From a virus (taxonomy: Duplodnaviria > Caudoviricetes): DNA of 64,000 nucleotides. Shown here one piece after another: positions 38,117 through 62,119 of the stretch. The notes beneath the pieces are model-generated. The model had not been told where the DNA came from. It saw only the letters and a list, made by a program, of their open reading frames with translations, and searched no databases. The position numbers were made by a program, and so were the translations under genes. Each line of letters opens with the position of its first letter. Position 1 is the first letter of the stretch. The DNA lies in IMG/VR virus record IMGVR_UViG_3300028797_000006, positions 1 to 64,000 of that record. One strand, written 5' to 3'.

Positions 38117-38318
38117 CTTTCTTATCCTCCAAATTCTCTACGTCAATATTAAAATGTTTCTTGTAGTTTTTAATTTGTCTTTTGGTGAACTTAACACGAG
38201 AAAGCATTATATGCAAATCGCCAATATGAGCAACTGCAGTATATTTCTTAACGAAATCACCTATGCTTTTAACCTTTGATTTTTTAACAGTACTATCTAA
38301 CGTTTTATTTTTAGGCAT
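38109..38318 (-). CDS. hypothetical basic protein
   Basis: MPKNK... start overlapping the dnaE stop, GGAGG RBS. Confidence 0.6.
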   Translation of the reverse strand: MPKNKTLDSTVKKSKVKSIGDFVKKYTAVAHIGDLHIMLSRVKFTKRQIKNYKKHFNIDVENLEDKKDA

Positions 38319-41300: not shown

Positions 41301-42330
41301 CCGCATACTCATCCCAATGTTCATATTCTACGTGCGCAAGTTTTGGCTTTTGCTCAAGCTCATAAAATCTGCACATATCTTTAATTTTATTTGTGTTTGC
41401 TACCATTTCTTCAAATTTATCATCTGAAACATATGGCATTAAATCGCGAACCTCTTGTTGTCTCATAACATATGCATACTTATAAAATTCATCAACTTCT
41501 CTATCTTTTGATGACTTTGAGTTCAAGAATGCTTTATGCGTTTCACGTTCATCAACATTCAAATAGTGCGCGTCAGTAGTGAAGATAAAAGGATATTTAC
41601 CCCAATATCTTTCTATCATAAATTCATTATATGCATTTTGATCGCTTCCAATTTCATTTGGTTGAAGTTCAATATAAAAGTTACCTTTACCAAATAAATT
41701 TTGCATCGCGGTTAAATGATTATCTAACTTCTCTTGGAAGTTAATGCCCATTTCCCATGGCAATCTGTCAGTTGGATTACTTAACTTCTTCCAACACCAT
41801 GCAGCATAACCACCAAGACATGCGGTTGAACATACTAAATGTCCACCTTTTACATATTCAATTAAGTCACTTGGATAAGTTGGGGTTCTTAAAATACCTC
41901 TGAACCATGCCCTTCTCCAAGCACTACTACTTAATTGTTTTAATTGATGAAATCCTTCCGCATCTTTCGCAATAAGAATTAAATGCCAAAAATGCACTGG
42001 ATGATTGCCATCCATCTGCATTTCATCTAATCCTTCTTCACTTAAATAAATCTCGTTACCAAGCATTACTTTGAAGTCCAAAGCAATTGATGCAGTTTCA
42101 TATCCTGGAAATTCAACTGGATACTTTAATTCCCACAATTCTTTTAATTTCTTTTTATATATATCTAATGCTTGAAGAGTTCCGCTGAGACAATCATGTT
42201 CTGTCATTGCTACACCACTTAATCCGATTTCCCAAGCATAATCAACAGTTCGTTCAAAACGATTGATACTATCAATAATTTTAATGTTGGAATATTCAGA
42301 GTGACAATGTAGTGTGCAATAATTTCTCAT
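38311..42330 (-). CDS. dnaE: DNA polymerase III alpha subunit (family C)
   Basis: PHP domain HCHSEYS/TDAHY, SRGSAG, PDIDFD, HASGV, KYDFL, GYSFSELH. Confidence 0.95.
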   Translation of the reverse strand: MRNYCTLHCHSEYSNIKIIDSINRFERTVDYAWEIGLSGVAMTEHDCLSGTLQALDIYKKKLKELWELKYPVEFPGYETASIALDFKVMLGNEIYLSEEGLDEMQMDGNHPVHFWHLILIAKDAEGFHQLKQLSSSAWRRAWFRGILRTPTYPSDLIEYVKGGHLVCSTACLGGYAAWCWKKLSNPTDRLPWEMGINFQEKLDNHLTAMQNLFGKGNFYIELQPNEIGSDQNAYNEFMIERYWGKYPFIFTTDAHYLNVDERETHKAFLNSKSSKDREVDEFYKYAYVMRQQEVRDLMPYVSDDKFEEMVANTNKIKDMCRFYELEQKPKLAHVEYEHWDEYADDLEVFADVDEETYPNFYHYLHTDNKSDNYLARLVAHGYVEKYQQGWTDEVYYKRLEEEFWTLKEVGDKIEQPMADYFITMNKIMDLVWNEANSISGPSRGSAGALLINYLLGITQMNPVQMDLPFVWRFLHPSRPDLPDIDFDTESDKRLAVFKAVRDYFNSIGGDVINVCTFGTEGTKSALKTAGRGLKIDDDTITYITSMIPNERGFDWTLSECYYGNGDDKKPIKAFVDQMKEHPKLWKLAQNIEGLITRLGVHASGVVCVNGDFNDYNSVMKTSHEQLVTSYDLHTLERCGMVKYDFLTVSALDRIRQCMNYMLEDGTMEWQGSLRATYNKYLSPQVLDYTSEEMWDMVGRGEISSLFQFDTLVGSQAIKSIQPRSLNELAISSSLMRLMGEGELPLEKYARFKRVPQLWYDEMRAHGLNKAEMLLLEKYLLKKNGVGESQEVVMQMVMDPQISGFDMKEANKLRKTIAKKQFREIEAVKDMFFEKGRALGASNNLLSYIWYVQISAQLGYSFSELHTTGYALIALQEMNLAYKYPIIYWNCACLSVDSSAINASDFYNLIENDIVDGDAGEEKKAQNKIDYAKLATALDKFRTVCKIEMPDINTSRLSFTPDVKDNSILYGLKGITRITEPVINEIMINRPFTSLDDFLNKVQKRIITKDKVINLIKCGAFNKLEAKTTKMILQNYIASICDMKKKLTMQNANMLIDLHLLPDEFEYQSDLYKLTKELRRNRDPNKIWYCADRLAIPTNKVDSWRQIFRDSGIIGEEIVIEGEPRKVLSSKRWDVFYEGQMNKIKKYITDNHDELLKTLNERLFHDEWEKYCSGDKLQWELDSINFYYTDHPLRKVIKQLPYAVNRVDSIIEGAQDGNFLIKGKEIPKMKLYTIAGTVIDRDRTKGLVTLQCPDGVVNLKVYKDLFATMIAVAGDIDEEGEKDIEQDSFFEKGVHLLVTGIQRGMTFVPKVYKNTGRKSILRIILDEEGDFVELEEKKDA

Positions 42331-42385
42331 AGATTCTCCTAATTAATTTATTATACTAAATCTTTTTCTATTGTGCAAGTTATTT

Positions 42386-42655
42386 TTATGCATCAAACTT
42401 TTTAGGTTCTTCAGGCGCTTCATCTGGATCTTTGCCAAAAAGCGCTTGTAATCTTTCGACAGATTTTTGAGCTATTTCTTGTAGTTCATTATAGATGTCA
42501 TCTGCATTATCATAGAAGTCTTTAATTAACTCTATTGATTGTTCAGGAGTTAATTCAAGATAAAGTTTATCTAAAGATGTGAAGAATAACATCATTTCTA
42601 CTGTATTGCCTTCAAAATCTAGTCCATGTTTCTTTAAAAATTCTTCCATTTTCAT
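42386..42655 (-). CDS. hypothetical protein
   Basis: 89-aa ORF in operon. Confidence 0.65.
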   Translation of the reverse strand: MKMEEFLKKHGLDFEGNTVEMMLFFTSLDKLYLELTPEQSIELIKDFYDNADDIYNELQEIAQKSVERLQALFGKDPDEAPEEPKKFDA

Positions 42656-42657
42656 AA

Positions 42658-42909
42658 TTATTTACTCTTTCTTCTGAAGTCGTTAGTATTAATTGTTTCA
42701 ATTTTAGAATCACCTACAGTAGTTGTACTCCAAGTAATATATGGTTGATTTGGTGACCATGGTTGATATGGTGACCATGGTTGCCAACAAAGTGGACATT
42801 TTTGATTTGTAAGTTCGCAAACTCCGCATGGTAAACGATGTTTGCAAGTATTTTCATAAAAAGTGTAATTGCTACCAGTACACGTTGTAGTAAAATCTTT
42901 TTTACTCAT
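42658..42909 (-). CDS. hypothetical Cys-rich protein
   Basis: CKHRLPCGVC...CP; short QPWSP tandem repeat. Confidence 0.65.
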   Translation of the reverse strand: MSKKDFTTTCTGSNYTFYENTCKHRLPCGVCELTNQKCPLCWQPWSPYQPWSPNQPYITWSTTTVGDSKIETINTNDFRRKSK

Positions 42910-42919
42910 ATTTTTTCTC

Positions 42920-44731
42920 CTAAATTAAATCAAATAAAGTTTTTGTTTGAGGAATGGCTTCACGCTCTTCAATTTCAATGTCATCAATCATAACTTGAAT
43001 ATTAAAGTTTCCATTCCATTCATTGAGTTGCGGACGACCGACGATGTGCGCGGTTCCCGCAGGCATACCCAATAATCTTTGGGCAAGATTAGCTTTTTTA
43101 AAAGCAACGAAGTCAATACCATTACATTTAATTTTAATTGAGCTTTTGTCTTTACCCATAATAAGAACATCTGTCTTATTGAAATCTATTGTAAATGCAA
43201 ACTTAGGTTGCGGCAATGAATTGCCCCATAAGTCATCATAAGATGCCATTTGATAAAGCATTTCATCATCTATGTCCCAATTATTTTTGAAGATATAATC
43301 AACCTCGTATACATTTTCAAAGGTTTCTGGATTTAAAGTTTTATTCGCTACTTCTCTAACCTTTTCGACTTCTTCGGCAGTTAAGAACGCACCAAATGCA
43401 TTAGCATGTCCTTCACCATAAGTAATTCCGACCTTATGTAAGAAAGTTTTAAGGTCACTTAATCCAAAGAAGTTTCCATTACGTCCGCTACCACCATAAA
43501 GTTGATGTCCTCCTTCAAAAGTTGTTTTTCTTAAAACAAGAGCAGGTCTATTGAACTCTTTAACAAGTTCCATGGCGATTAAACCTGTTAATGTTGGCGT
43601 AACTTTTTTACTTTCTGCATCATCTAATGTAACAATAATAATATTATCTTTATCATGCCCTTCTTGTTTAATTTTCCCGCAAAGCCATTCAAATGCTTTT
43701 TTCTTACTAGCATCTTGTCTTCCTTTTGCGTTCGCGGCTAAACGTGCAGCGCATTGATAAAGTGTTTCATGATACTCAACTCCACGCCAAGTGCGGACAA
43801 AATCTTCAGTATTACCTTCTTCGCTCATCGCGCGGAATACCATTATCTTATCTTCTGGTTCGCCACTTCTAATAACACCATTAATGATAGGTGCGATATA
43901 GAAAGCGACATCTATTTTAGTTAAACAATTAGGATTTTTAATTCCATGAGCTTGTTTAATTGCGACTTCCTTAATAAATTGATTGCGGATACCTTTAAGT
44001 CCATGGAAAGCCAAGAAGTTGTTACCAAGAGTAGTCATATTCATTGCATCGGCGATAATTCCGATTGCGGCTAAATCTCTATAATCCTTGTAAATTGCCT
44101 CTGATGGGAAATAAAGTTCATCCATCATTTTGATGAACATATAAACGATTCCTGCACCACTCATACTTTTATTTGAGAAATAAGGGCTAAATTGATTATT
44201 AACAATAATAGCGCCAGTATTCTCTTCTGTTTCGATATCGTGATGATCAAGAATAATAACAGTTTTACCTTGACTGACTAATGCTCTTTGTTCTTCAATA
44301 TTGTTTGATCCGGCGTCAGGAACAAAGATTAATGTTCTATCTTCTGGGATATCTTCTAAAACAATACCATGTTCTTTGCCTGGATGAAGAGCATATTTTA
44401 TATCAGTAGAAGGGAATCTTCTTCTTAAGTAGTTAATTAAAATTGAACTTGATGTATAACCATCTGTATCACTATCGACTACTACGAAGACTTTTGCTCC
44501 ATGAATTAACTCGGACCAGGCGGTTTCACAAGCTGTTTTCATATTGAGAAGGTCTTCTGGATGATCTTCATCTTCATCTCTTGGTCTCTCAATAAAACTA
44601 GGGATATCCCTTTCTTTAATGCCGAGACTTAAAAGATACTGCGCAATATAGCTAATATTTTTGCCATGGTAGATATTCGCAGATGATGTATTTTTAACTA
44701 AATGATTTACTTTTAATTCTATTCTATTCAT
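42920..44731 (-). CDS. recJ: RecJ-like DHH ssDNA exonuclease
   Basis: DSDTDG, ILDHH, SGAG, GSGR, GHANAFG. Confidence 0.9.
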   Translation of the reverse strand: MNRIELKVNHLVKNTSSANIYHGKNISYIAQYLLSLGIKERDIPSFIERPRDEDEDHPEDLLNMKTACETAWSELIHGAKVFVVVDSDTDGYTSSSILINYLRRRFPSTDIKYALHPGKEHGIVLEDIPEDRTLIFVPDAGSNNIEEQRALVSQGKTVIILDHHDIETEENTGAIIVNNQFSPYFSNKSMSGAGIVYMFIKMMDELYFPSEAIYKDYRDLAAIGIIADAMNMTTLGNNFLAFHGLKGIRNQFIKEVAIKQAHGIKNPNCLTKIDVAFYIAPIINGVIRSGEPEDKIMVFRAMSEEGNTEDFVRTWRGVEYHETLYQCAARLAANAKGRQDASKKKAFEWLCGKIKQEGHDKDNIIIVTLDDAESKKVTPTLTGLIAMELVKEFNRPALVLRKTTFEGGHQLYGGSGRNGNFFGLSDLKTFLHKVGITYGEGHANAFGAFLTAEEVEKVREVANKTLNPETFENVYEVDYIFKNNWDIDDEMLYQMASYDDLWGNSLPQPKFAFTIDFNKTDVLIMGKDKSSIKIKCNGIDFVAFKKANLAQRLLGMPAGTAHIVGRPQLNEWNGNFNIQVMIDDIEIEEREAIPQTKTLFDLI

Positions 44732-45802
44732 TTATACAATTCTCCTGTTCTTTAAAATGTGCTCAAATATGTCTTTACCTCCATCGATCGGGCTACTCTT
44801 ATATGGCAACTCGAAGTCATAATCCATAAGTATGCTTACATTAAAGTAAGGAGATAATATTTTCGCTTTTTCAATATATTTTGCTTCAACTTCTGCTAAT
44901 TGTTTGTAGTCCTCATAATCACTATCATATGCGAGAATGACATGAGATACTTTCATCTTTAACAGATACTGGATGTGGTCTTTTGTAATATTTTGCCCCA
45001 ATGTTGCGAGTGATATATTATTTTGGTTTCCATATATCGACCCATACTTAAGACAAGATTTTTCTCCTTCAAATATAATCGCCATCTTTTTTCTTTCAAT
45101 ATTTTTGCGGTTCTCATAGATACCATAGAATGTGCGACCAGTTGGGTGATTATATAATGTCCCTTGGTCATACAAAGGTCTATACTTACCTTTTTTAGTA
45201 TCTTCTGGTCTAAAATATCTCTCTCTGATACCAATTAAATCGCCATTAAAATTGAAGTTAGGGATAACGATTGCCTGACGGAATGAATCCCATCTAATAT
45301 TGAACTTTTGTAACGCTTCAATACTAATGCCTTCTTCAATCCAAGGCATTAAGCCCATATAATCAAAACTAAACCTCTTAAGAATAGCCTTATCATATGT
45401 CTTAAACTCCGCATTAATGTCTCCGATATATACATTATTTAACGTTTGCATATATCTAATATCATCTAAAGCATTGAGTGCTCTATTCTCGACATTAATT
45501 GAGGATGGATCCAAGTCACAAATTGAGACTGCTTGAAGTAAAGTAATCTCTTGTCCACGCAAATGATACATCTTCTGTAATAATGTGAAGATGTCGAATG
45601 TCGCGGCGCACTCTGTGTAACAATGGAATAATTTTGTATTTTTATAATAAATTAACTTTGGACTACCGCCTTCAAGATTATGACAGCAGGTAGGGAAAGT
45701 TATTGAATCTTCATTTTCTTCTACTGGTTCAACATTAAATTGCGCGAGAATGTCCTTTATCATTTCATCGGACAATTGATCTCTTAGTTCTTTAAAATCC
45801 AT
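44732..45802 (-). CDS. dnaG: DNA primase
   Basis: CCHN...CYTEC zinc finger; TOPRIM FEGEKS, AYDSD. Confidence 0.88.
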   Translation of the reverse strand: MDFKELRDQLSDEMIKDILAQFNVEPVEENEDSITFPTCCHNLEGGSPKLIYYKNTKLFHCYTECAATFDIFTLLQKMYHLRGQEITLLQAVSICDLDPSSINVENRALNALDDIRYMQTLNNVYIGDINAEFKTYDKAILKRFSFDYMGLMPWIEEGISIEALQKFNIRWDSFRQAIVIPNFNFNGDLIGIRERYFRPEDTKKGKYRPLYDQGTLYNHPTGRTFYGIYENRKNIERKKMAIIFEGEKSCLKYGSIYGNQNNISLATLGQNITKDHIQYLLKMKVSHVILAYDSDYEDYKQLAEVEAKYIEKAKILSPYFNVSILMDYDFELPYKSSPIDGGKDIFEHILKNRRIV

Positions 45803-47394
45803 TAGATTACCCCCTTAGTTTTCAAATCTAAGAAGTCAAATGGTCTTTGATCATATTGAAGTTGTCCGATCTCACTGACTGTCTTATAACTTGCATCTGT
45901 TACAAATAAATCTTGGCATCTACAAGTTGAGTAATCAAAGTATCTAAATACTTTAACGCCATTTAATTCTCCACGTCTATTTTTATAAATGTCTATAACA
46001 ATATTAGGTTCATGTGTATACTTTGACGGATTAGACTTTTGAAGTTCGGTCCAGAACGCTTCGATTTGTTTCTTCTCTTCTTCACAAACCTTGACACCAA
46101 TCATACCAATATCAATTTTATCTGCGATAGCTTTAGAACCACGGATACAGTTTTGATCTCTTAAACCTATTTCTTTTTTACTCCAACCATCATTTAATTG
46201 TGTCGCACTTTGAATGAATACATTATAATTCATTGCGACTTCTTTAATACTATTTGATAACATCATTAATGCGACGTCTTCACGGACTTGAACGTCTCTG
46301 AACTCGCTCAATAATCCTGGACTACTAAATATATAATCATAGAAGATATATTCTACATTATTTTGAACAATATATTTAGCTAAAATCGCCTTAATCATTG
46401 CAATACTTGGATCTGGAACTACCTCCAAAATCATATTCTTGCCATATTTATCAATGATATCTAATGCCCTTTGGATTCTCTCCAATTCATCTGGACTAAA
46501 ACTACCTAATAAGATATTCTTTTCATTAACCCCGCTGACATAAGCCAAAATCATTGTTTGGATTTCATCTGCCTTTTGCTCGGTTGTGATGTAAAGAACT
46601 TGTTGATAATCGTCCTCTTCTACTGTTCCTCTTAACACGACTTTACCATTTCTATCAATAAATGGCATACTAATCGCGCAAGCATTACCAACCATATAAC
46701 GAGTTTTACCTGCACCAGATGGTGCACTATATGTATATAATTTGCCGAGACGTGCACCTCTTGTCGCATAATTTATAATTTCTCCATCTAAAGGCAAACC
46801 AACTTCTGGATTCGCCTGAAGTTCCGCGACTAATTGTCTCATGCCTTGAGACGCAATTTGTGACGTACTATCTTCTTTGCCGATATGTCTGTTCTCAATT
46901 ACAACAAGATTTTCTCTAACCTTATTCACAATATCGGTTAAAGACATCTTATTTAACTTTTCATCTTCGGCATCCCTATTTAACGGATCTTTTTCGGTAT
47001 CATAAAATTCCTTGGTGTCATAACCAATTGCCTCAAGATCTCTTAACATAGAGAACTTTTTTAATCTATTATAATATGTCTGGAATTGTTTTTCATCTGT
47101 TCCCTCTGTGGACTGGTAACATTGAACTACAAATTCATATCCTTTTTCTTTTTTATAAAACTCATATTGACTTTCATATTGAGTTAAGTATAAATCTATA
47201 TCTTGCGGAGTTATACGCTCAACACCATTTTGAGCCATATTGAAGACCGCATAGAATACTAATTGTTGTAAAGGCTTATAGAAGTCTGTCTTTACAAATG
47301 CATACCTTTCATCTTGTAACAAAAGAGGTTTATGCATCAAACAACTCAAGACATATAACGACGTATTGTTGTCGAATAAGTCTTTCTTTATCAT
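45802..47394 (-). CDS. dnaB: replicative DnaB-like helicase
   Basis: APSGAGKT, ITTEQ, FYDYI, ATQLN, KNRRG. Confidence 0.9.
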   Translation of the reverse strand: MIKKDLFDNNTSLYVLSCLMHKPLLLQDERYAFVKTDFYKPLQQLVFYAVFNMAQNGVERITPQDIDLYLTQYESQYEFYKKEKGYEFVVQCYQSTEGTDEKQFQTYYNRLKKFSMLRDLEAIGYDTKEFYDTEKDPLNRDAEDEKLNKMSLTDIVNKVRENLVVIENRHIGKEDSTSQIASQGMRQLVAELQANPEVGLPLDGEIINYATRGARLGKLYTYSAPSGAGKTRYMVGNACAISMPFIDRNGKVVLRGTVEEDDYQQVLYITTEQKADEIQTMILAYVSGVNEKNILLGSFSPDELERIQRALDIIDKYGKNMILEVVPDPSIAMIKAILAKYIVQNNVEYIFYDYIFSSPGLLSEFRDVQVREDVALMMLSNSIKEVAMNYNVFIQSATQLNDGWSKKEIGLRDQNCIRGSKAIADKIDIGMIGVKVCEEEKKQIEAFWTELQKSNPSKYTHEPNIVIDIYKNRRGELNGVKVFRYFDYSTCRCQDLFVTDASYKTVSEIGQLQYDQRPFDFLDLKTKGVI

Positions 47395-47801
47395 TATTTA
47401 TTTTCTCCTTCAACATCTATTTCAGAGATATCTAATTGCTTAGGTTGTCTCCTTTTATGTTGTAGTGACTTTATATTGAATATAATATTACTTTCTTGAC
47501 ACTCTACTAATTTCTTAGCCTGTTCTTTTTGAGCTTGTTGGTCAAGTTCCAACTGCCTAAAATATTTAGCCGCTCTATCCTTAACAGAAGGGACAAAGCT
47601 CAAACCATAAACCGGCTCGCATTTACCCTTAAATACTTCTGTGTACCAAACGATGCAGCGGGCAATATCTTTATAAGTCATATTATCAATCAATACATAA
47701 CTGCTAATATGCTTACGAATTAGCGGAGTGACGGACGAAATGCCCATCACTTCGCATATTAATTCTTCTAAATCTCGTTTGGAATATGGTTTATTTTCCA
47801 C
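47394..47801 (-). CDS. hypothetical replication-module protein
   Basis: 135 aa, coupled to the helicase gene. Confidence 0.65.
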   Translation of the reverse strand: MENKPYSKRDLEELICEVMGISSVTPLIRKHISSYVLIDNMTYKDIARCIVWYTEVFKGKCEPVYGLSFVPSVKDRAAKYFRQLELDQQAQKEQAKKLVECQESNIIFNIKSLQHKRRQPKQLDISEIDVEGENK

Positions 47802-48558
47802 TGTTTACTGGTGCGGCTAATTGTTTCTTTACTTCATTAATAAAAGCATAGATACGTTGTAAGTTTTGACTATCTTCAGCTAATGTGAATAATGATAATC
47901 TCTTACCTTTTGCATTTTTAACAACATAATCCGTGATTGCCTTTGATGTGGCTTCGTCATAGTCTGCTGCTTGAACTAAATCAATAACATTTTTCTTCAT
48001 TGTATCAAAGCCATCTTGTGTTAAGACAACTGTTTGATATCTATCACAATTATCTGCGATTGCTTTATAATCAATAATTTTTCTCTCTACTTCTGGGAGA
48101 TCTTCACCAGCATAGACATAAAGACCTAAACCATGTCTTGCGCATGCTTTAACAAATGCTCTTTGAATTGACTTATTAACCGCAGTCATTGTTACCATAG
48201 ACAATGAAACTGCATTATTTCTATTATCCATAACAGGAAGAAGTTCGCATTCTTCTCTGTCATCAATAGTTACGCTAACTTTAACATATGCCGTCTTACC
48301 ATCTGTGAAGTATGGGATTTCATCCTCAGATTCTGTTACGATTGAAACTTTTTCTCCACCTTCATCAACGGTTCTTGTTGTTGTTGTCTTTGTCTTACGA
48401 GTATAGACTTTCCAACTTGCATCTGGGAAGTTCTTTTTAAGAACTGACCAAGCATCTGCCCAACTCAAATAAGATAATCCAATTTTTTCTTTAATTTTAT
48501 CTTTTAAGTTTATATTATTTAATATTTCAAAATTATTTTTCTTTTCTACGTGTTCCAT
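47791..48558 (-). CDS. Sak3/DUF1071-like single-strand annealing protein
   Basis: LSYLSWADAW, LPVMDNRN, NKSIQRAFVKACARHGLGLYVYAGEDLP. Confidence 0.88.
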   Translation of the reverse strand: MEHVEKKNNFEILNNINLKDKIKEKIGLSYLSWADAWSVLKKNFPDASWKVYTRKTKTTTTRTVDEGGEKVSIVTESEDEIPYFTDGKTAYVKVSVTIDDREECELLPVMDNRNNAVSLSMVTMTAVNKSIQRAFVKACARHGLGLYVYAGEDLPEVERKIIDYKAIADNCDRYQTVVLTQDGFDTMKKNVIDLVQAADYDEATSKAITDYVVKNAKGKRLSLFTLAEDSQNLQRIYAFINEVKKQLAAPVNSGK

Positions 48559-48626
48559 GTTGTACTCCTGAATAAAACATTATGCGGCAAAAGGGCCTTA
48601 GAGCCCTAATGCCATTTATAAGTTTA

Positions 48627-49499
48627 TTAAATTAAACTTGTTTGTCTTGAAGTTACTGCTGGAGCTTCTTCAATAGGTTCAGAACTTCCTTCTTTTGCGG
48701 AGTTCATTAATTCAACGTCATGTGCTTTATAAGCAGAGACTAATGAACGAATGACATCACTTGGATATGAACCTTGTGCTGGATCTGTGATTGCTGAAGA
48801 TCCGCCTTGGATGAAGAAGTTAGAGATTTTATTTGTGAATGTTCTTGTGATACCTTCACCAAATCCACCTTCATTCTTTGCTGTTGAAGTAACAACTTTA
48901 ACAATGAAGTTTAAATCACCATTAACTCTGACTGTATCGCCGACTTTGTAGTTGCGGACACCATTAATGATTTCTCTATCTGAAGGATTGACGTGAAGTG
49001 TGAACTTAGACATCATATTTCCAGAATAGTTGGATTGTCCGATTGCTACATCGTAACGATAGACTTCGTTATCCTTATTTAATTTTTCTTTGAGTTCTTC
49101 TACGATAAAACCGCCAATTTCGAAGGTTGCTTCATCAACTGTTGTTTCGCTCATACCACGAACAAAACGTCCGCTTAATTGTTGAGCTGAAGCCATTTGA
49201 TTTGTGCTCTTACTCCAGAAACGATTTTCTCTGATTTCACCATCAATTTGGACTTTCTTACCAACTAATTCACTCATCTTTGAGTATGAGTTATATAATT
49301 GACTGACTTTTCCATCTTTTGTGGTTTGGGAAGTGTAGAAACGGATCTCAAATGTGTTATCTGCACCACCAATGTTTGAGATGACTACTGCAGAACCTGA
49401 AATGTATCCTGCGCCATCTGATTTGCGATTACCTGGTCTCATATCGACACTTGATAATCTGCCTACGATTTTGAATGAGTTTGTTCTTAATAAATCCAT
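48627..49499 (-). CDS. ssb: single-stranded DNA-binding protein (tandem OB folds)
   Basis: NSFKIVGRL...GEIREN...; second OB fold YKVGDTVRVNG; position beside the SSAP. Confidence 0.7.
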   Translation of the reverse strand: MDLLRTNSFKIVGRLSSVDMRPGNRKSDGAGYISGSAVVISNIGGADNTFEIRFYTSQTTKDGKVSQLYNSYSKMSELVGKKVQIDGEIRENRFWSKSTNQMASAQQLSGRFVRGMSETTVDEATFEIGGFIVEELKEKLNKDNEVYRYDVAIGQSNYSGNMMSKFTLHVNPSDREIINGVRNYKVGDTVRVNGDLNFIVKVVTSTAKNEGGFGEGITRTFTNKISNFFIQGGSSAITDPAQGSYPSDVIRSLVSAYKAHDVELMNSAKEGSSEPIEEAPAVTSRQTSLI

Positions 49500-49563
49500 G
49501 AGTTTTCTTTTCCTTTTGCTTTAAAATTTTTCTTTTGCCACAAGTTTAATTTGATTAATTTAA

Positions 49564-49824
49564 TTAGATACTGAATGCTCTACCGGCATCGGTTAAGCGA
49601 TAAGTTTTATATTCCTTATCTTTTGTTTCACCTTTATTATTGGTGAATGGTCTGACAACTGGTTCACCAGCTTCGACTAATTCGTGTTTAATTAATGAGT
49701 TGAGAACTGGATAGATACCTTTAATACCTGTCATCTCAATCATGTCTTTTCCGACTAAAGTTTCATCATGAGCTTGCATAAAGCTTAAGACTCTTTTGCC
49801 ATTATCTGTTAATGTAATTTCCAT
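49564..49824 (-). CDS. winged-helix DNA-binding protein
   Basis: LNSLIKHELVE...YRLTDAGR. Confidence 0.65.
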   Translation of the reverse strand: MEITLTDNGKRVLSFMQAHDETLVGKDMIEMTGIKGIYPVLNSLIKHELVEAGEPVVRPFTNNKGETKDKEYKTYRLTDAGRAFSI

Positions 49825-49923
49825 TTAATTCTCCTTATTATAAATGCTTTTATAAAGTTTGTGTGGCTTCAAATCTTTATAAACTATTATATCATATCTT
49901 TTTTGCTTGGTCAATATTTTTTT

Positions 49924-52131
49924 CTAAATTATTCTCGAGACGGCGCGAGAAGTTAATACCGCTCCCATAGCAGTTCGACCCTTCACAGTAATCTTATTTC
50001 TTGCTACAGTAAATAGTTTTCCTTGTTTTGGAACTAGGTAGATATTCTCACGTCCGCTGTCGAATCGGCGCATACAGACAGTGCCTTCAGTGACTAATTG
50101 ACCTTTATTGCCTCTATTATCGACTGAGAAGTCTTTAACAGAAGTATATTTACCCTTGTTATCTTTTGTAACAAAGAGTAAAATGTCACTGTCACTTACC
50201 ACTGCTGCGGCCGCAATTGACGCAAAGCCTGATTTAACACCAACGGTCATCTTAGATGCAACTGTTAAATCAGCAATAGATAATTTTAATACATTTTGAT
50301 TGCCGTCAAACAACATTAAGAAGTCTGAATCTGAACAGAAGTCCGCGAATACAAGTTCATCGCCTTCTTTGAGTTTGATAACTTTCTCTTCTGCCTTATT
50401 GAACTTGTATTCAGATGCGAGAGAAACTTTGATGTTGCCATTCTTTGTGACAGCGACAAATTTTTCTTTCTTATCTTTTACGCAAGCTCCGATATAACCG
50501 GCAGAAGCTTGAACAGGAGAAATTTCTCCTTCCTTATTATAACCTAGGATGTCCTCCATTCCGTAGGCAAAGACTACGTCTATAAGAGCGCCCACATCAC
50601 TAGGATTCAAATTATTATCAATTCCATTTGTTGTAATCCTATATTCTTGTTTGACTACTGGTTTATCTGCGGTGGCATTTGGTCGCGCATAGTGAATTTC
50701 AGTTAAACGTTCATCTTTTCCAAGAACTTTCTTAATTGTTTGTAAATCATTTACAATGATTTTATATCTTTCGCTTTCATCGTCAATAATATGTTTGATT
50801 TGAGCGAGAGTTTTTTCTAAATCTTCTTTGTCCTTATCGAGTTCAGCCAAATCAAGACGACTCAATCTTGAAAGTTTCATATTGAGGACGGCTTCGGCTT
50901 GTTCATCGTTAAGTTCAAAGGCTTGTATAATCGCAGTTTTTGCCGCAGTTCTGTCTGAGGCATTACGGATTAAGCTAATAAGTTTATCAATATCACTCAT
51001 GCACTTTTGTAAACCAATAGTGACTGTGAGTTTATGATTTGTATCGGCATAGTCAGTCCATGCGACTCTTTCGATACAATGACTTCTATAATTTACCCAA
51101 TATTCAATCATTTGTTTCAATGAAAGAACACGTGGTTCGCCATTAACAATTAAGTTTTGGTTAATCTTAATTGATGAAGCGAGTTTAGTTTTATTAAACA
51201 ATACTTCTAAACATTTAGAAACATTCGCATCTTTTCCTAATGTGATTGTGATATCGAAGTTGCGGTCACCGGCTTTAAGGACGCTAATATCCTCAAAGAC
51301 ATCATAACCATCATCTAAAACCAGCTTCTTTAATGGTTTCTTAATACCATCGTCGATATCTACTCCATATGGAATATCGTGAAATGTAACCAAAGTTTTT
51401 GCGCCTTTTTTCGCAATATCGTAATGTGAATAAACTTTAACACTTCCTTGACCTCTTGTGTAGATATCAAGTAGTTCTTCGCCATTCATAATGATTCCGC
51501 CTGTTGGGAAGTCTGGGCCTTTAATGAATTGCATTAAATCCGCAATAGAACAATCTTTATGTTCCATATAGAATTGAATTGCACCCATAACCTCTGTGAA
51601 GTTATGAGATACTAAATCAGAACCCATACCAACAGCAATACCACTATTATTTCCGCATAAAAGATACGGGAACTTTGATGGTAACGTGCATGGCTCGGTG
51701 CAAGAGTTATCAAAGTTAGGTCTTGTATCTACACAGTTCATGCCGATATCTTCAAGCATAAACATACCGATTTCACTTAATCGGCACTCTGTATATCTTG
51801 AAGCCGCGGCACCATCCCCGAGGATATTACCGCAGTTACCTTGCATTTCAACTAATGGATAACGGAGTTTCCACCATTGACTTAATCTTACTATTGCTTC
51901 ATAGATTGAAGAATCGCCATGTGGGTGATATGCGCCCATGACGTTTCCTACAACCTTGGCACTTTTTACAGTAGGTTTATTATTGTAGAATTTACTCTCA
52001 TACATAGACCATAAAATACGTCTATGAATTGGTTTGAGGTTATCTTCTACGCTTGGGATTGCACGGCTTTTGATGACGCTATTGGCGTAAATAAGGAAGT
52101 CTTGTTTACTTCTTTCATCAATTGTGCTCAT
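49924..52131 (-). CDS. gyrA: type IIA topoisomerase subunit A (GyrA/ParC)
   Basis: DNLKPIHRR, YHPHGD, AASRYTE catalytic Tyr, GPDFPTGG; gyrase vs topo IV not resolved. Confidence 0.9.
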   Translation of the reverse strand: MSTIDERSKQDFLIYANSVIKSRAIPSVEDNLKPIHRRILWSMYESKFYNNKPTVKSAKVVGNVMGAYHPHGDSSIYEAIVRLSQWWKLRYPLVEMQGNCGNILGDGAAASRYTECRLSEIGMFMLEDIGMNCVDTRPNFDNSCTEPCTLPSKFPYLLCGNNSGIAVGMGSDLVSHNFTEVMGAIQFYMEHKDCSIADLMQFIKGPDFPTGGIIMNGEELLDIYTRGQGSVKVYSHYDIAKKGAKTLVTFHDIPYGVDIDDGIKKPLKKLVLDDGYDVFEDISVLKAGDRNFDITITLGKDANVSKCLEVLFNKTKLASSIKINQNLIVNGEPRVLSLKQMIEYWVNYRSHCIERVAWTDYADTNHKLTVTIGLQKCMSDIDKLISLIRNASDRTAAKTAIIQAFELNDEQAEAVLNMKLSRLSRLDLAELDKDKEDLEKTLAQIKHIIDDESERYKIIVNDLQTIKKVLGKDERLTEIHYARPNATADKPVVKQEYRITTNGIDNNLNPSDVGALIDVVFAYGMEDILGYNKEGEISPVQASAGYIGACVKDKKEKFVAVTKNGNIKVSLASEYKFNKAEEKVIKLKEGDELVFADFCSDSDFLMLFDGNQNVLKLSIADLTVASKMTVGVKSGFASIAAAAVVSDSDILLFVTKDNKGKYTSVKDFSVDNRGNKGQLVTEGTVCMRRFDSGRENIYLVPKQGKLFTVARNKITVKGRTAMGAVLTSRAVSRII

Positions 52132-52367
52132 TATTTTTCTTCTTTCTTGGCTAGTTCTTCGGCCATTTGTTTTTCCATTTCTGCACGTTCTTGTTCGGCT
52201 TGTTCAGCATAGATTTCAGTTAATGTTTTACCATCAACTTTCAAAATATCTTCTACTGTTACAAGACGTTGGTTAAGAATGTTTGCGAAGTGGACGATTG
52301 CTGAAAGCGGCATATCTGGAGTGATTTGCACATCTTTCCAACCACGAATTTGTTTCTCTTCTGGCAT
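52131..52367 (-). CDS. hypothetical protein
   Basis: 78 aa between the topoisomerase subunits. Confidence 0.65.
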   Translation of the reverse strand: MPEEKQIRGWKDVQITPDMPLSAIVHFANILNQRLVTVEDILKVDGKTLTEIYAEQAEQERAEMEKQMAEELAKKEEK

Positions 52368-52378
52368 AATTATTCTCC

Positions 52379-54322
52379 TTATTCATCGTCTGCGTCTGTA
52401 TAATCATCGTAAGAATCATCACTATCAATCTTTGATAGTTTGTTCTTTAAGATGAACTCTCTTCTGAGAGCTGGTTGTTTGCCCATTAATTGATTATAAA
52501 GGGCAAGAGTTTTTTCCATATCTTCGGTTGTAAGTTGAACTAAATGTCTGTTCTCTGGATCCATTGTCGTTGAGTATAATTCATCTGGATTCATTTCACC
52601 TAAACCTTTGAAACGGTTGGAAATCGCATTTCTGTGATTTCTCATATATTTCTTGTATTCTTTTTCATCACTTGGATACCAATACAATACTTCTTTACCA
52701 TTTGTTGTTTTATAAAGAGGTGGTGTGGCGGCATAAACTTTACCCGCTTTAATTAACTCTGGTAAGTGATGTAAGAATAAAGTTGTTAATAGAAGGTTAA
52801 TATGTCCTCCATCTGGGTCGGCATCAGCCATAAAGATAATTCTATTATAGCGAAGATTATTCATATTGAAGTGATCTCCAATGCCGCAACCAAGACAAGT
52901 TAATATATCTTTAATTGTATCAGATTTAATTGCATCTGCCAATTCTTTACAGGTTGTATTTAATACCTTGCCGCGTAAAGGCATAATGGCTTGACCAAGG
53001 TTCTTAGTAATCTTGGCGTTTCCAGCAGCTGAGTCACCTTCACAGAAGAAGATTTCCGCGTCTGTGAAGTCATTTGCATCTGCGAGTTTTTCCGGCAAGT
53101 CTTTGAGTGAGTTCATTGACTTTCCACCACGCGCGATTTTTTCTTGGGCTTCACGCTTTCTTTGAGCGGCCTCTTCGGCTTTTTGCTCAATCATAATTTT
53201 ATCTAAAATTTGTTTGATTTCTTTTGGTTGAAGAACTAATTGACCAACTGCCTTGCTACAGAATGTTCTGGCTTGCGGCGAGTTGAGTGTTCTTTTTGTT
53301 TGCTCGGCGAACATTGCGCGGCATGCCATTTTTATTGATAAAACGAGCACTAATCCTTTACGGACAATATCGCCGCTTAAGTTTTTGTCTTTATCCTTTA
53401 ATACTTCTTGATCTCTAGCGAGTTTATTTATCAATGAAGTATAGGCTGTTTTCCAACCTGTGACGTGAGTTCCATCGTTTGGCGTATAACCACCATTAAC
53501 GAATGAATAGATGGTTTCACATCCTTTATCACAATAAGCAAAAGCCATATCTACATCGCATTCTTCTCCTGTATCGAGAACAACATGAGTTCCGAAGTAA
53601 ACAGGATTTGTAATCATATTTAAGCCTTCGCTTTTAATTTTAAGCATATCTTTAATGCCATTTGTATAAAAGTATTTCCAAGTTCCTAAAACTTTTTCGC
53701 CATTCTTTTCAACTAACTCAAAAGTAATACCATTATTTAAGAGGGCGTGGAGTTGGAGTTCTTCTTTTATTTTTTCGAGGTCCCATTTTAAATCGCCAAA
53801 AACGGCCTTATCAGGCACAAAAGTAATAGTAGTGCCTTGACGAGTGCCTTTATATGGCTCGATATCTGGATCCAAAATATCTCCATCAAAGACTTCAAAG
53901 AAACAATGTTCTTTATCTCTCCAAACTTCAATTATAAAGTCAGAAGAAAGCGCATTAGTAACAGTAGCACCAACGCCATGAAGTCCGAGTGATGATTTAT
54001 AGTTGCCTTGACCTTCAAACTTTCCACCTGAATGAAGATTTGTGCACATCTCTACGATTGCATATTCTCCATTTTCTTTCTTGTGGAATGGAATGCCACG
54101 ACCATTATCTATAACAGATGCGCTATTTTGGCTTCTGTCGATTTCTACTCTAATTAGTTTTCCATAACCTGCGGCCGCTTCATCCATTGAGTTCGCAACA
54201 ATTTCAGTTAGAAGATGTTGCATACCTTCAAGAGAGTTATTGCCAATATACATACCGATTGATTGACGAATAGCCTCTCGGTAGCCTAAGGTTACAATAC
54301 TACTTTCATTATAATCGTTCAT
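52379..54322 (-). CDS. gyrB: type IIA topoisomerase subunit B (GyrB/ParE)
   Basis: EIVANSMDE, DNGRGIP, GLHGVG, EGDSA, PLRGK, DADPDG, RFKGLGEM. Confidence 0.92.
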   Translation of the reverse strand: MNDYNESSIVTLGYREAIRQSIGMYIGNNSLEGMQHLLTEIVANSMDEAAAGYGKLIRVEIDRSQNSASVIDNGRGIPFHKKENGEYAIVEMCTNLHSGGKFEGQGNYKSSLGLHGVGATVTNALSSDFIIEVWRDKEHCFFEVFDGDILDPDIEPYKGTRQGTTITFVPDKAVFGDLKWDLEKIKEELQLHALLNNGITFELVEKNGEKVLGTWKYFYTNGIKDMLKIKSEGLNMITNPVYFGTHVVLDTGEECDVDMAFAYCDKGCETIYSFVNGGYTPNDGTHVTGWKTAYTSLINKLARDQEVLKDKDKNLSGDIVRKGLVLVLSIKMACRAMFAEQTKRTLNSPQARTFCSKAVGQLVLQPKEIKQILDKIMIEQKAEEAAQRKREAQEKIARGGKSMNSLKDLPEKLADANDFTDAEIFFCEGDSAAGNAKITKNLGQAIMPLRGKVLNTTCKELADAIKSDTIKDILTCLGCGIGDHFNMNNLRYNRIIFMADADPDGGHINLLLTTLFLHHLPELIKAGKVYAATPPLYKTTNGKEVLYWYPSDEKEYKKYMRNHRNAISNRFKGLGEMNPDELYSTTMDPENRHLVQLTTEDMEKTLALYNQLMGKQPALRREFILKNKLSKIDSDDSYDDYTDADDE

Positions 54323-60051: not shown

Positions 60052-60246
60052 ACTTTCTAACCTCCGTATGTTTAATGCGATCCTGTTCGCTTTATAAGTA
60101 TCGGCCTGAGACACACCGAAAATAAACTATTTAATTCGTCGAGACCTACGGTTACATTTAAGTAGCTAGAACCGGTCTATCTTAATGAGCCACAACTCAA
60201 GAAGTTCACTAGTTTTTGTTTGTTTGTACTGTGACTAACGAATAAT

Positions 60247-60343
60247 TGGCACGGGTTGTAGGACTCGAACCCACACCTACCGCTTTGGACACGGAATCTT
60301 TACGGTTTTGAAGACCGCTGTGCTGCCATTACACTAAACCCGC
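60247..60343 (-). tRNA. UGA-decoding tRNA (anticodon UCA; probable tRNA-Trp suppressor) with a 27-nt variable region
   Basis: Acceptor GCGGGTT/AACCCGT, G73, encoded CCA; D arm GTGT-AATGGCA-GCAC; anticodon arm GCGGT-CTTCAAA-ACCGT; T arm GTGGG-TTCGAGT-CCTAC. Confidence 0.92.
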
Positions 60344-60358
60344 ATATTTAACTATTAA

Positions 60359-60387
60359 AATATAGTTAAAGTATTTTTGTTTGTCAA
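60359..60387 (-). promoter_or_regulatory. sigmaA-type promoter for the tRNA
   Basis: TTGACA-17 nt-TATATT, ending 15 nt before tRNA G1. Confidence 0.75.
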
Positions 60388-60388
60388 G

Positions 60389-62119
60389 TTATTTTTCGAA
60401 TGATGATTTTTCTGGGAAATTAGTTTCAAAAAATTTATTTATATTAGCTCTTGTTATATCTTCTTTAATTGAAGAAACTTTTGTATCATTTAAACAGACC
60501 ATTTCTCTGTTCCTTACACAATCTCAAGGAGTATAACTATTTAATTCAAAATAATTAGATTTTTGATAAATTCTAGGTTTCTTTTTACTGACTCCTTGAT
60601 ATTTCATACTATCAATAAACAATAAAGATGGAACGACATTCTTTTTATGTCTAAAACGTGAAACTTTCATAGCATCTCAAATTTCATCCATATATTTACT
60701 CATAAAATCTATTTCATAAGATTTTAATCGTCCATCTGGTAAATGACTATAGTAAATATAGTTACTTCTTTGTCCGCAAATATTTTTTATTAAGAACTTA
60801 GTAGTATTATTTACAACAGAAGATCAAACGCCACTACCATTACCTCAATTTGCAGACATAGTTCCGGTTTCTCCATAATAAAGTGTATCACCTTCAAAGA
60901 ACATATCCCTTGGAATAGGATTCATAAAATAAAAGTCATCATTACAAACAATAAAATGATTACTTAAATCTTTAATTCTATAATAGAACGTTTCAATAAC
61001 TAATGTACTAAAAGTTGGTAAAAACTCTTCAGGGATGAATTCATCATGATACACAATTCTAAGTTTCGGACATTCTCTATTTAATCATTCAGGTAATTGA
61101 CTTTCTCTTTGAACAACTAAAAATACTTTATGTACTCAAGGACAATTTTTTTCAACACATCTAAATCAATATTTAAATACGCCTCAATCACGAGTTCTTT
61201 CAGTACCAAAAGCTTGAATATTAGAAGCATCTTGAATACCTTGATCAATTTCTAATTGTCTATATTTATTAAAATCTGCGCGTCAATTTTCATCATTAGG
61301 ATTAACTCATGGTACAATAATATCAATGTTTTCTCCGGTATTACAAGATTCTAATAAATCAATACGCTCTTCTTCAAACTGATTGAATCTCTCTAAATTA
61401 GATGGCATATTTACTCCTTGAAAATCTAAAAATTCATTAATAGATAAATTTTTATCATCAATATAAAAATCTGCATTTGGTTTACCAAATCACAATTCGT
61501 CATACTTAACGCCATTTTTATCTAATCAAGCACGTGTAATAGCATCATATTTAGCTATACGCTCTTCTATTGTTTTACAACTTTTTGCGCCACGAGCAGT
61601 AGAAAGAATAATCTTTCATCCTTGATCATGGAAACGATTAATTTGCTTAATTGTTTCAACAAGAGGATAAGAATTTTCAAAATCTCTATTTTTTGTGAGA
61701 CATAAGGTGTCATCAATATCTATACAAAGTGTGTTATATCTTTCTCTACTTTTAAGATATTCCTTTTCTTTTGTTGTGCTGATATTTGGGGTACGATCTA
61801 AAAAAACTACTTGAGCAAAAGTTTTTATACGATCAATATCATGGTATCCTTTATATTCTGAGCCACAAGCAAATATTTGGACATGTTTCAAATAACTAAA
61901 TTTATCTTCTTGTGAGTAAAGAGGCACTACTTCATCGACATATCTAATGCTTAAAAGAATTTGTTTACGTTCTTCATATGAATAAAAAGGAATTTTGCCT
62001 TCAGGATTTACATTTACACCTACAACTAAATAATCGCCTAAAGCTTTAGCTCTGCGCAATAAACTAATATGTCCGTAATGTAGAATATCAAATGTTCCTG
62101 TTGTAAATACCTTTTTCAT
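60389..62119 (-). CDS. tri-domain fusion: TagD-like cytidylyltransferase + HAD phosphatase (EcbF/BcbF-like) + Stealth-family sugar-phosphate transferase (code 4)
   Basis: 576 aa in one frame; GTFDILHYGH and RTPNISTT; DIDDT...STARG...GKP...YIDD; Stealth IDIIVP(W)VN, PTFS..IE...NDD, CLND, FPEKSSFE. Confidence 0.85.

Follow-up and report, generated by a model that had tools for sequence, protein, structure and literature searches.

A second, CCA-bearing anticodon-type arm in a phage opal suppressor tRNA, a candidate recognition handle for the host tryptophanyl-tRNA synthetase

How does a phage tRNA that reads UGA come to be charged with tryptophan, when bacterial tryptophanyl-tRNA synthetase (TrpRS) reads C34-C35-A36 of the anticodon and the discriminator base G73? 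The question is raised by a gene at 60247-60343 (minus strand) in IMG/VR record IMGVR_UViG_3300028797_000006. The window analysed here, the 64,000-nucleotide stretch at positions 1 to 64,000 of that record, covers the first 64 kb of a phage genome from bovine gut metagenomes; the genome is complete at 118,402 bp and has direct terminal repeats. The gene encodes an opal suppressor tRNA-Trp(UCA) of 97 nt, with the 3' CCA encoded and with two anticodon-type arms: arm 1 carries UCA, and arm 2, in the variable region, displays the tryptophan anticodon CCA. The best-supported reading of arm 2, which we hold with moderate confidence on comparative sequence grounds, is that it is a recognition handle for host TrpRS.

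The layout of the gene, all on the minus strand, was consistent among ARAGORN, Rfam, the predicted fold and an alignment of the family (A1). By sequence, the acceptor stem begins with GCGGGUU (60337-60343), which pairs with 60251-60257 and includes a G1.U72 pair, and ends with AACCCGU, the discriminator G73 and CCA (60247-60257). The D arm (60320-60334), seen in the Rfam match, the fold and the alignment, is of class-I type, with a 4-bp stem, GUGU/GCAC, and a 7-nt loop, AAUGGCA. Arm 1 (60302-60318; GCGGU-CUUCAAA-ACCGU, anticodon UCA at 60309-60311), called by ARAGORN, Rfam and the fold, starts after one base 3' of the D stem and without a linker, like a normal anticodon arm. A 6-nt linker, AAAGAU (60296-60301), separates it from arm 2 (60279-60295; (U)CCGU-GUCCAAA-GCGG(U), core 60280-60294, CCA at 60286-60288), a spare Trp-anticodon arm identified from the fold, conservation and covariation. 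A second linker of 4 nt, AGGU (60275-60278), leads to the T arm (60258-60274; GUGGG-UUCGAGU-CCUAC), again supported by Rfam, the fold and the alignment. ARAGORN reported a single tRNA at 60247-60343 with anticodon tca, and Rfam RF00005 matched it end to end (57.3 bits against a cut-off of 29, model positions 1-71) with a 24-nt insertion in the variable region. That region is 27 nt long and holds a hairpin, and the minimum-energy fold shows both hairpins. The description and coordinates given in the original prediction are correct.

The possibility that the extra arm is an assembly artefact, which the same prediction had raised, is ruled out by a contig from an independent DNA study that matches 60165-60324 without difference and by a near-identical tRNA from another sample (L074); sister variants were found in the same habitats. 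Contigs X3 and X15 from RNA libraries also span the locus, although contigs cannot show transcription, ends or processing and the libraries may contain DNA. In run X1, word depth within 60261-60362 was 194-291 over the tRNA against 11-14 in the flanks, indicating that this rumen sample contains many related tRNAs of the two-arm kind.

The phage encodes 31 tRNA genes, a single one of which has a UCA anticodon, and they include an ordinary 74-nt tRNA-Trp(CCA). The suppressor shares acceptor positions 1-5 and G73 with this tRNA, and its second linker has the length of that tRNA's variable loop, also 4 nt. RNA positions 49-95 of the suppressor align to the 3' two-thirds of an annotated tRNA-Trp(cca). 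With both arms removed, the body is most similar to phage tRNAs for Gly, Trp and Gln, with Trp enriched about 6-fold in the top 30. A variable region of more than 10 nt with a stem-loop makes the molecule class II by definition, but neither its D arm nor its linkers conform to that class.

Codon usage and alignments indicate that TGA is read as tryptophan in this phage. Many long frames are open only with TGA as a sense codon, and genome-wide there are about 192 in-frame TGA codons against 302 TGG, so that about 40% of tryptophan is written as TGA. The gene just upstream of the tRNA (60389-62119, minus strand), a fusion of a cytidylyltransferase with a Stealth phosphotransferase, writes all 13 of its Trp codons as TGA, which makes it a client of the UCA tRNA. 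When its Stealth domain was aligned with 115 standard-code homologues, all five conserved-Trp columns were TGA in the phage, and the remaining TGA columns held W, Y or F and never Ser, Gly or Cys; a TGA at residue 252 of NrdD also aligned with a Trp of the Thermotoga enzyme. A six-frame open reading frame (ORF) density test for TGA recoding in short loci was set aside as confounded by base composition, with read-through of TAA inflating the signal in AT-rich DNA and high-GC DNA yielding spurious ORFs, and is illustrative for a few loci only.

The TGA codons are unevenly distributed. The replication block (38311-54322, minus strand) has 0 TGA and 51 TGG, whereas tail and other late genes have TGA/TGG counts of 23/2, 18/4, 13/0 and 8/0. 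Structural and accessory genes at 2321-33459 and 57967-65548 mostly use TGA, a sharp modular split from the replication genes that fits code-switch timing of the late genes. The UCA tRNA lies by itself in a TGA-rich neighbourhood, at a distance of 30 kb from the main cluster of tRNA genes.

These observations bear on the label given by ARAGORN, tRNA-SeC. A genuine selenocysteine tRNA, or a serine-accepting class-II suppressor, would likewise have a UCA anticodon, a long variable region and G73. Against this, the acceptor and T stems follow a 7/5 and not an 8/5 layout, the D arm has a 4-bp stem with a 7-nt loop, the roughly 192 in-frame TGA codons, where selenocysteine UGA would be rare and SECIS-dependent, fall on Trp or aromatic columns and never on Ser or Cys, and selA and selB are absent from the complete phage genome. 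We give a selenocysteine or serine tRNA next to no probability, and regard the label as wrong; the concern about SerRS voiced with the original prediction is answered by the tryptophan columns. An intron reading, with one of the two arms removed, was also rejected, as we know of no bacterial machinery for a tRNA intron of roughly 23 nt.

We found that the second arm is widespread among viral UCA tRNAs. A scan of IMG/VR that required a UCA arm, a gap of 18-40 nt and a T loop, leaving the gap sequence free, recovered 78 loci with 69 distinct sequences, and UCCA was present in 42 of the distinct variable regions where shuffling predicts 3.6. Anchored on UCCA, stem positions 1 to 5 could pair in 35, 42, 40, 42 and 37 of the 42, with four to six pair types at each position; pairing dropped to 23 and 17 at positions 6 and 7, and shifted registers gave 2-31. 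Since pairing falls off after position 5, the element is a 5-bp stem capped by a 7-nt loop. Loop sequences were GUCCAAA (17), CUCCAAA (16), GUCCAUA (3), UUCCAAC (3) and three single variants. RNAalifold, run on 40 sequences with no structure supplied, returned five helices, including the extra one, which was 92.4% paired by formal count and had compensatory changes at four of four pairs (in 16, 13, 4 and 9 sequences). The covariation score of the whole structure was 0.601, compared with 0.181 in shuffles (0/500 reached the observed value) and at most 0.147 in slid registers.

With classes assigned by acceptor register alone, arm 2, in the form of a 5-bp covarying stem and the loop N-U-CCA-A-A, was present in 41 of 42 distinct viral 7/5-layout UCA tRNAs with a long variable region, and in none of the 8/5 selC-type genes. 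This conservation of the second-loop CCA and of stem covariation among homologues, which the original prediction had named as a test, upholds its view of the extra arm as a true anticodon-arm look-alike displaying CCA. Its description of a UGA-reading tRNA that has G73 and a body of Trp type also agrees with the TGA codons on Trp columns and with G73 in all 42 family members. The acceptor of the family is mostly AGGGGC/GCCCCU, a 4-nt linker follows arm 2 in 33 of the 42, and the two arms are 0 to 7 nt apart. The sole Trp-bodied 7/5 UCA tRNA with a long (28-nt) variable region and no CCA loop is at L057:2905-3002; ARAGORN miscalls it as tRNA-Phe(aaa). On the evidence of these alignments, the second arm is a conserved, selected family trait, and selection on its triplet points to a function.

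What that function might be is suggested by where the tryptophan identity elements lie: G73 is present, but CCA occurs only in arm 2, the decoding arm having UCA. The tRNA would be a functional, five-armed phage opal suppressor that inserts tryptophan at UGA, with arm 1, at the normal place of an anticodon arm, doing the decoding. Arm 2, at the place of a variable arm, would be a maintained copy of the ordinary tRNA-Trp anticodon arm, offering host TrpRS the CCA loop that was lost from the decoding arm. Amino-acid identity, set by arm 2 together with the acceptor and G73, would thereby be uncoupled from decoding by arm 1. As to origin, arm 2 has the look of the ancestral anticodon arm, to which arm 1 would have been added on the 5' side for decoding. 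The TrpRS gene is absent from this genome and from all 42 other two-arm records, 12 of which are at least 90% complete, so that the absence of a phage synthetase, first remarked for the window alone, holds for the complete genome. We infer that the phage depends on host TrpRS, and since that enzyme reads C34-C35-A36 and G73, arm 2 would most likely present CCA to it.

Similar two-arm tRNAs were found for other amino acids and codons. A tRNA-Ile(UAU) of 95 nt in the same phage genome, outside the window at G000:C1:92587-92681 (minus strand; L006:1498-1592), carries the hairpin AGCAA-CAGAUAA-UUGGCU, with a GAU-centred loop. Among 37 tRNA-like viral relatives of this Ile tRNA, collected without any demand on the variable region, 30 had a GAU-centred 7-nt loop with covarying stems, against 0.69 expected. 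Five further tRNAs of 90-92 nt with anticodon CAU (L159, L168, L174, L179 and L193) have a variable hairpin, UGAGG-AUAACA-CCUCA, that contains GAUAA; these are possibly tRNA-Ile2 of the lysidine type with an Ile-type spare loop.

Amber suppressors provided a further comparison. G061, a 146-kb TAG-recoded rumen phage with about 201 in-frame TAG codons, encodes a two-arm tRNA (L358; G061:C1:10262-10354) in which the decoding arm has CUA and the second arm GUCCAAA; a tRNA-Trp(CCA) paralogue adjoins it. When its endolysin was aligned with 120 homologues, four of five TAG codons fell on Trp columns (118/120, 120/120, 114/120, and 78 W with 38 F), and the conserved Gln columns were CAA. In this phage (G061:C1:10262-10354, G061:C1:31863-33176) TAG thus appears to mean tryptophan instead of the usual glutamine. 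Between G061 and the window phage, no more than 16 TAG positions could be aligned (W 3, Q 0), a number too small to carry weight by itself, and a 613-aa TAG-rich gene of G061 considered as a Stealth homologue proved not to be one, so that the Stealth alignment could not be reused. In a related phage, G064 (terminase 55% identical to that of G061), the tRNA at G064:C1:61228-61316 (minus strand; L419) pairs a CUA arm with a UUCUGAG second arm, and the TAG codons of a RecJ-like protein align with Gln columns (58/60, 60/60, 45/60) and in no case with Trp. L419 belongs with L409, L434 and L385 to a set of amber suppressors that have two arms, G73 and a spare loop of Gln type (UUCUGAG, CUCUGAA); L409, L419 and L434 have an A1.C72 mismatch, and in L385 the CUG is one position off-centre (UCUGAAA).

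The amino acid inserted at the stop codon therefore matched the arm 2 triplet in three phages, and the same decoding anticodon, CUA, went with Trp where the second arm was CCA (G061) and with Gln where it was CUG (G064). CUA lacks C35, a principal TrpRS determinant, and carries U35, a GlnRS determinant, so that a further Trp signal is required if Trp is to be inserted faithfully at invariant Trp sites. The Ile and CUA tRNAs share with the UCA tRNA an architecture in which a non-standard decoding arm is combined with a spare standard anticodon of the same amino acid; they differ in serving other amino acids or stop codons, in the A usually found at the position-33 equivalent of the Ile loop, and in the Gln spare stem, only 3 bp in the examples seen. 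Our literature search found no published two-arm tRNA-Ile(UAU)/GAU or tRNA-Sup(CUA)/CUG or CCA.

One account of such molecules is that arm 2 is an evolutionary relic, the leftover original anticodon arm, tolerated and kept only for folding. That arm 2, its 3' linker and the T arm are collinear with an ordinary tRNA-Trp, and that the G061 tRNA sits beside a tRNA-Trp(CCA) paralogue, is what a relic would predict. The stems, however, have turned over fully while U-CCA-A stayed fixed in bodies with different acceptor and D arms, and GAU is likewise fixed in the Ile family. A neutral loop would drift, and an unchanged U-CCA-A amid such turnover is hard to reconcile with a relic, which we consider very improbable.

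Selection on the loop, the directionality of the design, and the Ile and CUA parallels in which the amino acid matches the second arm all favour arm 2 as a synthetase handle. Several observations nevertheless weigh against this reading. Arm 2 and the body co-vary by descent, each suppressor deriving from its cognate tRNA, and the whole body differs between Trp-type and Gln-type two-arm tRNAs; a match between arm 2 and the amino acid would then be expected even if the acceptor and G73 alone set identity. About half of arm 2 loops have G at the position-32 equivalent. Plain UCA tRNAs, which share the anticodon arm but have a short variable loop, occur on 19 viral contigs, and for this arm sequence the two-arm form is commoner than the plain form, not obligatory. 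A TrpRS gene was found in 2 of 18 plain-UCA records and in 0 of 43 two-arm records, the direction that a handle predicts, yet among near-complete genomes the contrast (0/13 vs 2/8, p ~0.13) is not significant. Among 31 phage UGA suppressors tested by Seki et al. (2025; PMC12636597), nine were active with no enzymes other than those of E. coli, and Trp was the residue inserted by every one of the 13 analysed. Together with the plain UCA tRNAs, that activity indicates that some bodies or hosts can do without the arm.

The shared descent of arm 2 and body also lends weight to the possibility that arm 2 was selected for a partner other than TrpRS, such as an anticodon-loop modification enzyme, a regulatory element that reads tRNA-Trp (a T-box leader, for instance), a host anticodon nuclease for which it acts as a decoy, or a phage factor, with identity coming from the acceptor stem and G73 alone. 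Conservation proves function and not the partner, and some plain UCA tRNAs manage without the arm. The kept triplet, on the other hand, is always cognate to the inserted amino acid (UCA/CCA-Trp, CUA/CCA-Trp, CUA/CUG-Gln and UAU/GAU-Ile), the cognate synthetase is the only class of partner common to all four settings that reads those triplets, and no Trp-specific nuclease or T-box context was seen at this locus. A different partner thus seems unlikely to us, if still a credible prospect.

It might also be asked whether both arms decode, either one stacking under the D stem so that the tRNA reads UGA and UGG or toggles between charging and decoding forms. Each arm does have one native junction, arm 1 at the D stem and arm 2 at the 4-nt loop that follows it in 33 of 42, and RNA positions 49-95 are collinear with a normal tRNA-Trp. 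The phage, however, has its own tRNA-Trp(CCA), and UGG can already be read by a UCA anticodon through wobble. About half of the loops carry G at the position-32 equivalent and most Ile loops carry A at the position-33 equivalent, bases ill suited to decoding, and on a CUA suppressor a CCA arm would misread nothing useful. Nor was the reversed order ever seen: among 55 distinct tRNAs with CCA first and a long variable region, none had a UCA-centred loop. The original prediction had pointed to reuse of nearly the same stem words in the two arms, and hence to alternative pairings; this is real in the present sequence, but strand-swap pairings of at least 4 bp are possible in only 5-8 of the 42 family members, so that a conformational switch through alternative stem pairing finds no support in the family. 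Its further suggestion, that one RNA might serve both Trp codons, is unlikely on the grounds of the phage's own tRNA-Trp(CCA) and the loop bases just described, and dual or two-state decoding as a whole appears improbable.

If arm 2 is a synthetase handle in the four settings considered, a broader principle can be proposed, somewhat more tentatively and from sequence comparison. Phages might generally recode on unmodified host machinery by keeping the cognate anticodon arm as a non-decoding identity arm and inserting an arm with the new anticodon 5' of it, the synthetase reading one and the ribosome the other, with the arms perhaps alternating under the D stem. If true, the two-arm principle would explain UGA-to-Trp, UAG-to-Gln, the rare UAG-to-Trp and TilS-independent AUA-to-Ile without phage synthetases. 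The charging of suppressor tRNAs by anticodon-reading host enzymes is an acknowledged open question; Borges et al. (10.1101/2021.08.26.457843) left open how suppressors are charged without a phage synthetase, and expected non-canonical phage tRNAs. A built-in cognate anticodon arm would be a simple physical answer, and would make the question addressable with a few tRNA mutants. It would also amount to a new principle of tRNA identity, in which the charging anticodon is separated from the decoding anticodon, and could provide a scaffold for genetic-code expansion, since any anticodon could be placed on a tRNA that is still a substrate of its synthetase. The layout would further explain why tRNA finders mislabel or miss such genes (tRNA-SeC, tRNA-Pyl, '???'), with suppressors undercounted as a result.

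The two-arm design is essentially phage-specific. A search for the pattern in 185,579 species-representative genomes gave 27 places, 23 of them true selC and four two-arm tRNAs. The latter were in metagenome-assembled genomes (MAGs), on low-GC contigs, three of 3-12 kb and one of 41.7 kb, which may be mis-binned phage. Of the selC matches, 19 belonged to one near-identical type from Caulobacterales/Alphaproteobacteria, in which UCCA lies off-centre within a loop of 9 nt, and the other four to different lineages. The selC genes of Caulobacterales and Phenylobacterium MAGs (L209-L233) carry UCCAAAAGG in the 9-nt loop of the variable arm, a lineage-specific look-alike that could be confused with the phage design in a simple motif search. 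Variable regions of phage tRNA-Trp(CCA) genes were also unusual: many of those on viral contigs (L235-L314) are class-II-like, with a long D loop and a 13-21-nt variable region whose short hairpin is often capped by a GAAA-type tetraloop, a layout unexpected for tRNA-Trp. Two of them, L240 and L300, have a variable arm, GAGUA-CUGAUCA-UGCUC, with a 5-bp stem and a 7-nt GAU-centred loop, which may be chance.

Other features of the locus and genome can be described briefly. A candidate sigma-70-type promoter (60359-60387, minus strand; TTGACA-17-TATATT, 11/12 matches) lies upstream of the tRNA, the -10 hexamer ending 16 nt from its 5' end; it comes from a consensus scan only, which is not evidence of function. 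In the fusion protein encoded at 60389-62119, one part is a glycerol-3-phosphate cytidylyltransferase-like domain, the middle domain matches phosphoheptose isomerase and polynucleotide kinase PHROGs, and the third is a Stealth (CpsY/GNPTAB-like) hexose-1-phosphotransferase domain; the combination suggests phage modification of a surface glycopolymer. A tRNA with anticodon CAA (Leu) at G000:C1:99208-99284 (minus strand) is only 77 nt long and has A73; for a bacterial-type tRNA-Leu, its lack of a long variable arm is unusual. By DNA polymerase, the nearest cultured relatives of the phage are SPbeta-like Bacillus phages, at 36% identity.

Among known systems, the closest are the recoded gut phages of Borges et al. 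and Seki et al., in which a phage tRNA(UCA) likewise inserts Trp at UGA, and recoding is likewise found in late and structural genes with replication genes in the standard code. Some of those phages bring their own TrpRS; the present phage and the 42 other two-arm records do not. No second anticodon-type arm is described in the main text of either study, nor in the parts available to us of a 2026 survey of bacterial tRNAs with 4-bp anticodon stems, where phages go unmentioned. A full-text search of the literature on double anticodon arms, anticodon mimics and recoded-phage suppressor tRNAs found no description of the design, in line with the statement in the original prediction that no such architecture was known.

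The extra helix between the anticodon and T arms also recalls the class II tRNAs (Ser, Leu and bacterial Tyr), in which such a helix is tolerated by the ribosome and the long variable arm is a synthetase identity element, as is proposed here for arm 2. The class II variable arm is recognized by its length and orientation and not by its loop sequence. In the phage tRNAs, by contrast, the loop copies a specific anticodon, on a 5-bp stem with a 7-nt loop, a 3' linker of 4 nt and a 5' linker of 0-7 nt, and the D arm is of class-I type in the UCA tRNA and in many of its relatives. Bacterial tRNA-Sec (selC) likewise has a UCA anticodon, a long variable arm, G73 and a length of about 95 nt, but it has an 8/5 acceptor/T layout (a 13-bp domain) and a 6-bp D stem with a 4-nt loop. 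In the phage tRNA the acceptor is 7 bp, the T stem 5 bp and the D stem 4 bp, and G73 and the CCA follow in the 7/5 register. The true selC genes recovered by the same scans had variable stems of 6-9 bp and loops of 3-9 nt with no centred CCA. A cognate-anticodon hairpin that serves as a synthetase site without decoding is also found in the E. coli thrS operator, the HIV-1 tRNA-like element that engages LysRS, and the yeast HisRS mRNA mimic (PMC6542539). Those mimics sit in mRNAs or viral genomes, where they regulate or sequester the enzyme, whereas arm 2 sits in the very tRNA that is to be charged.

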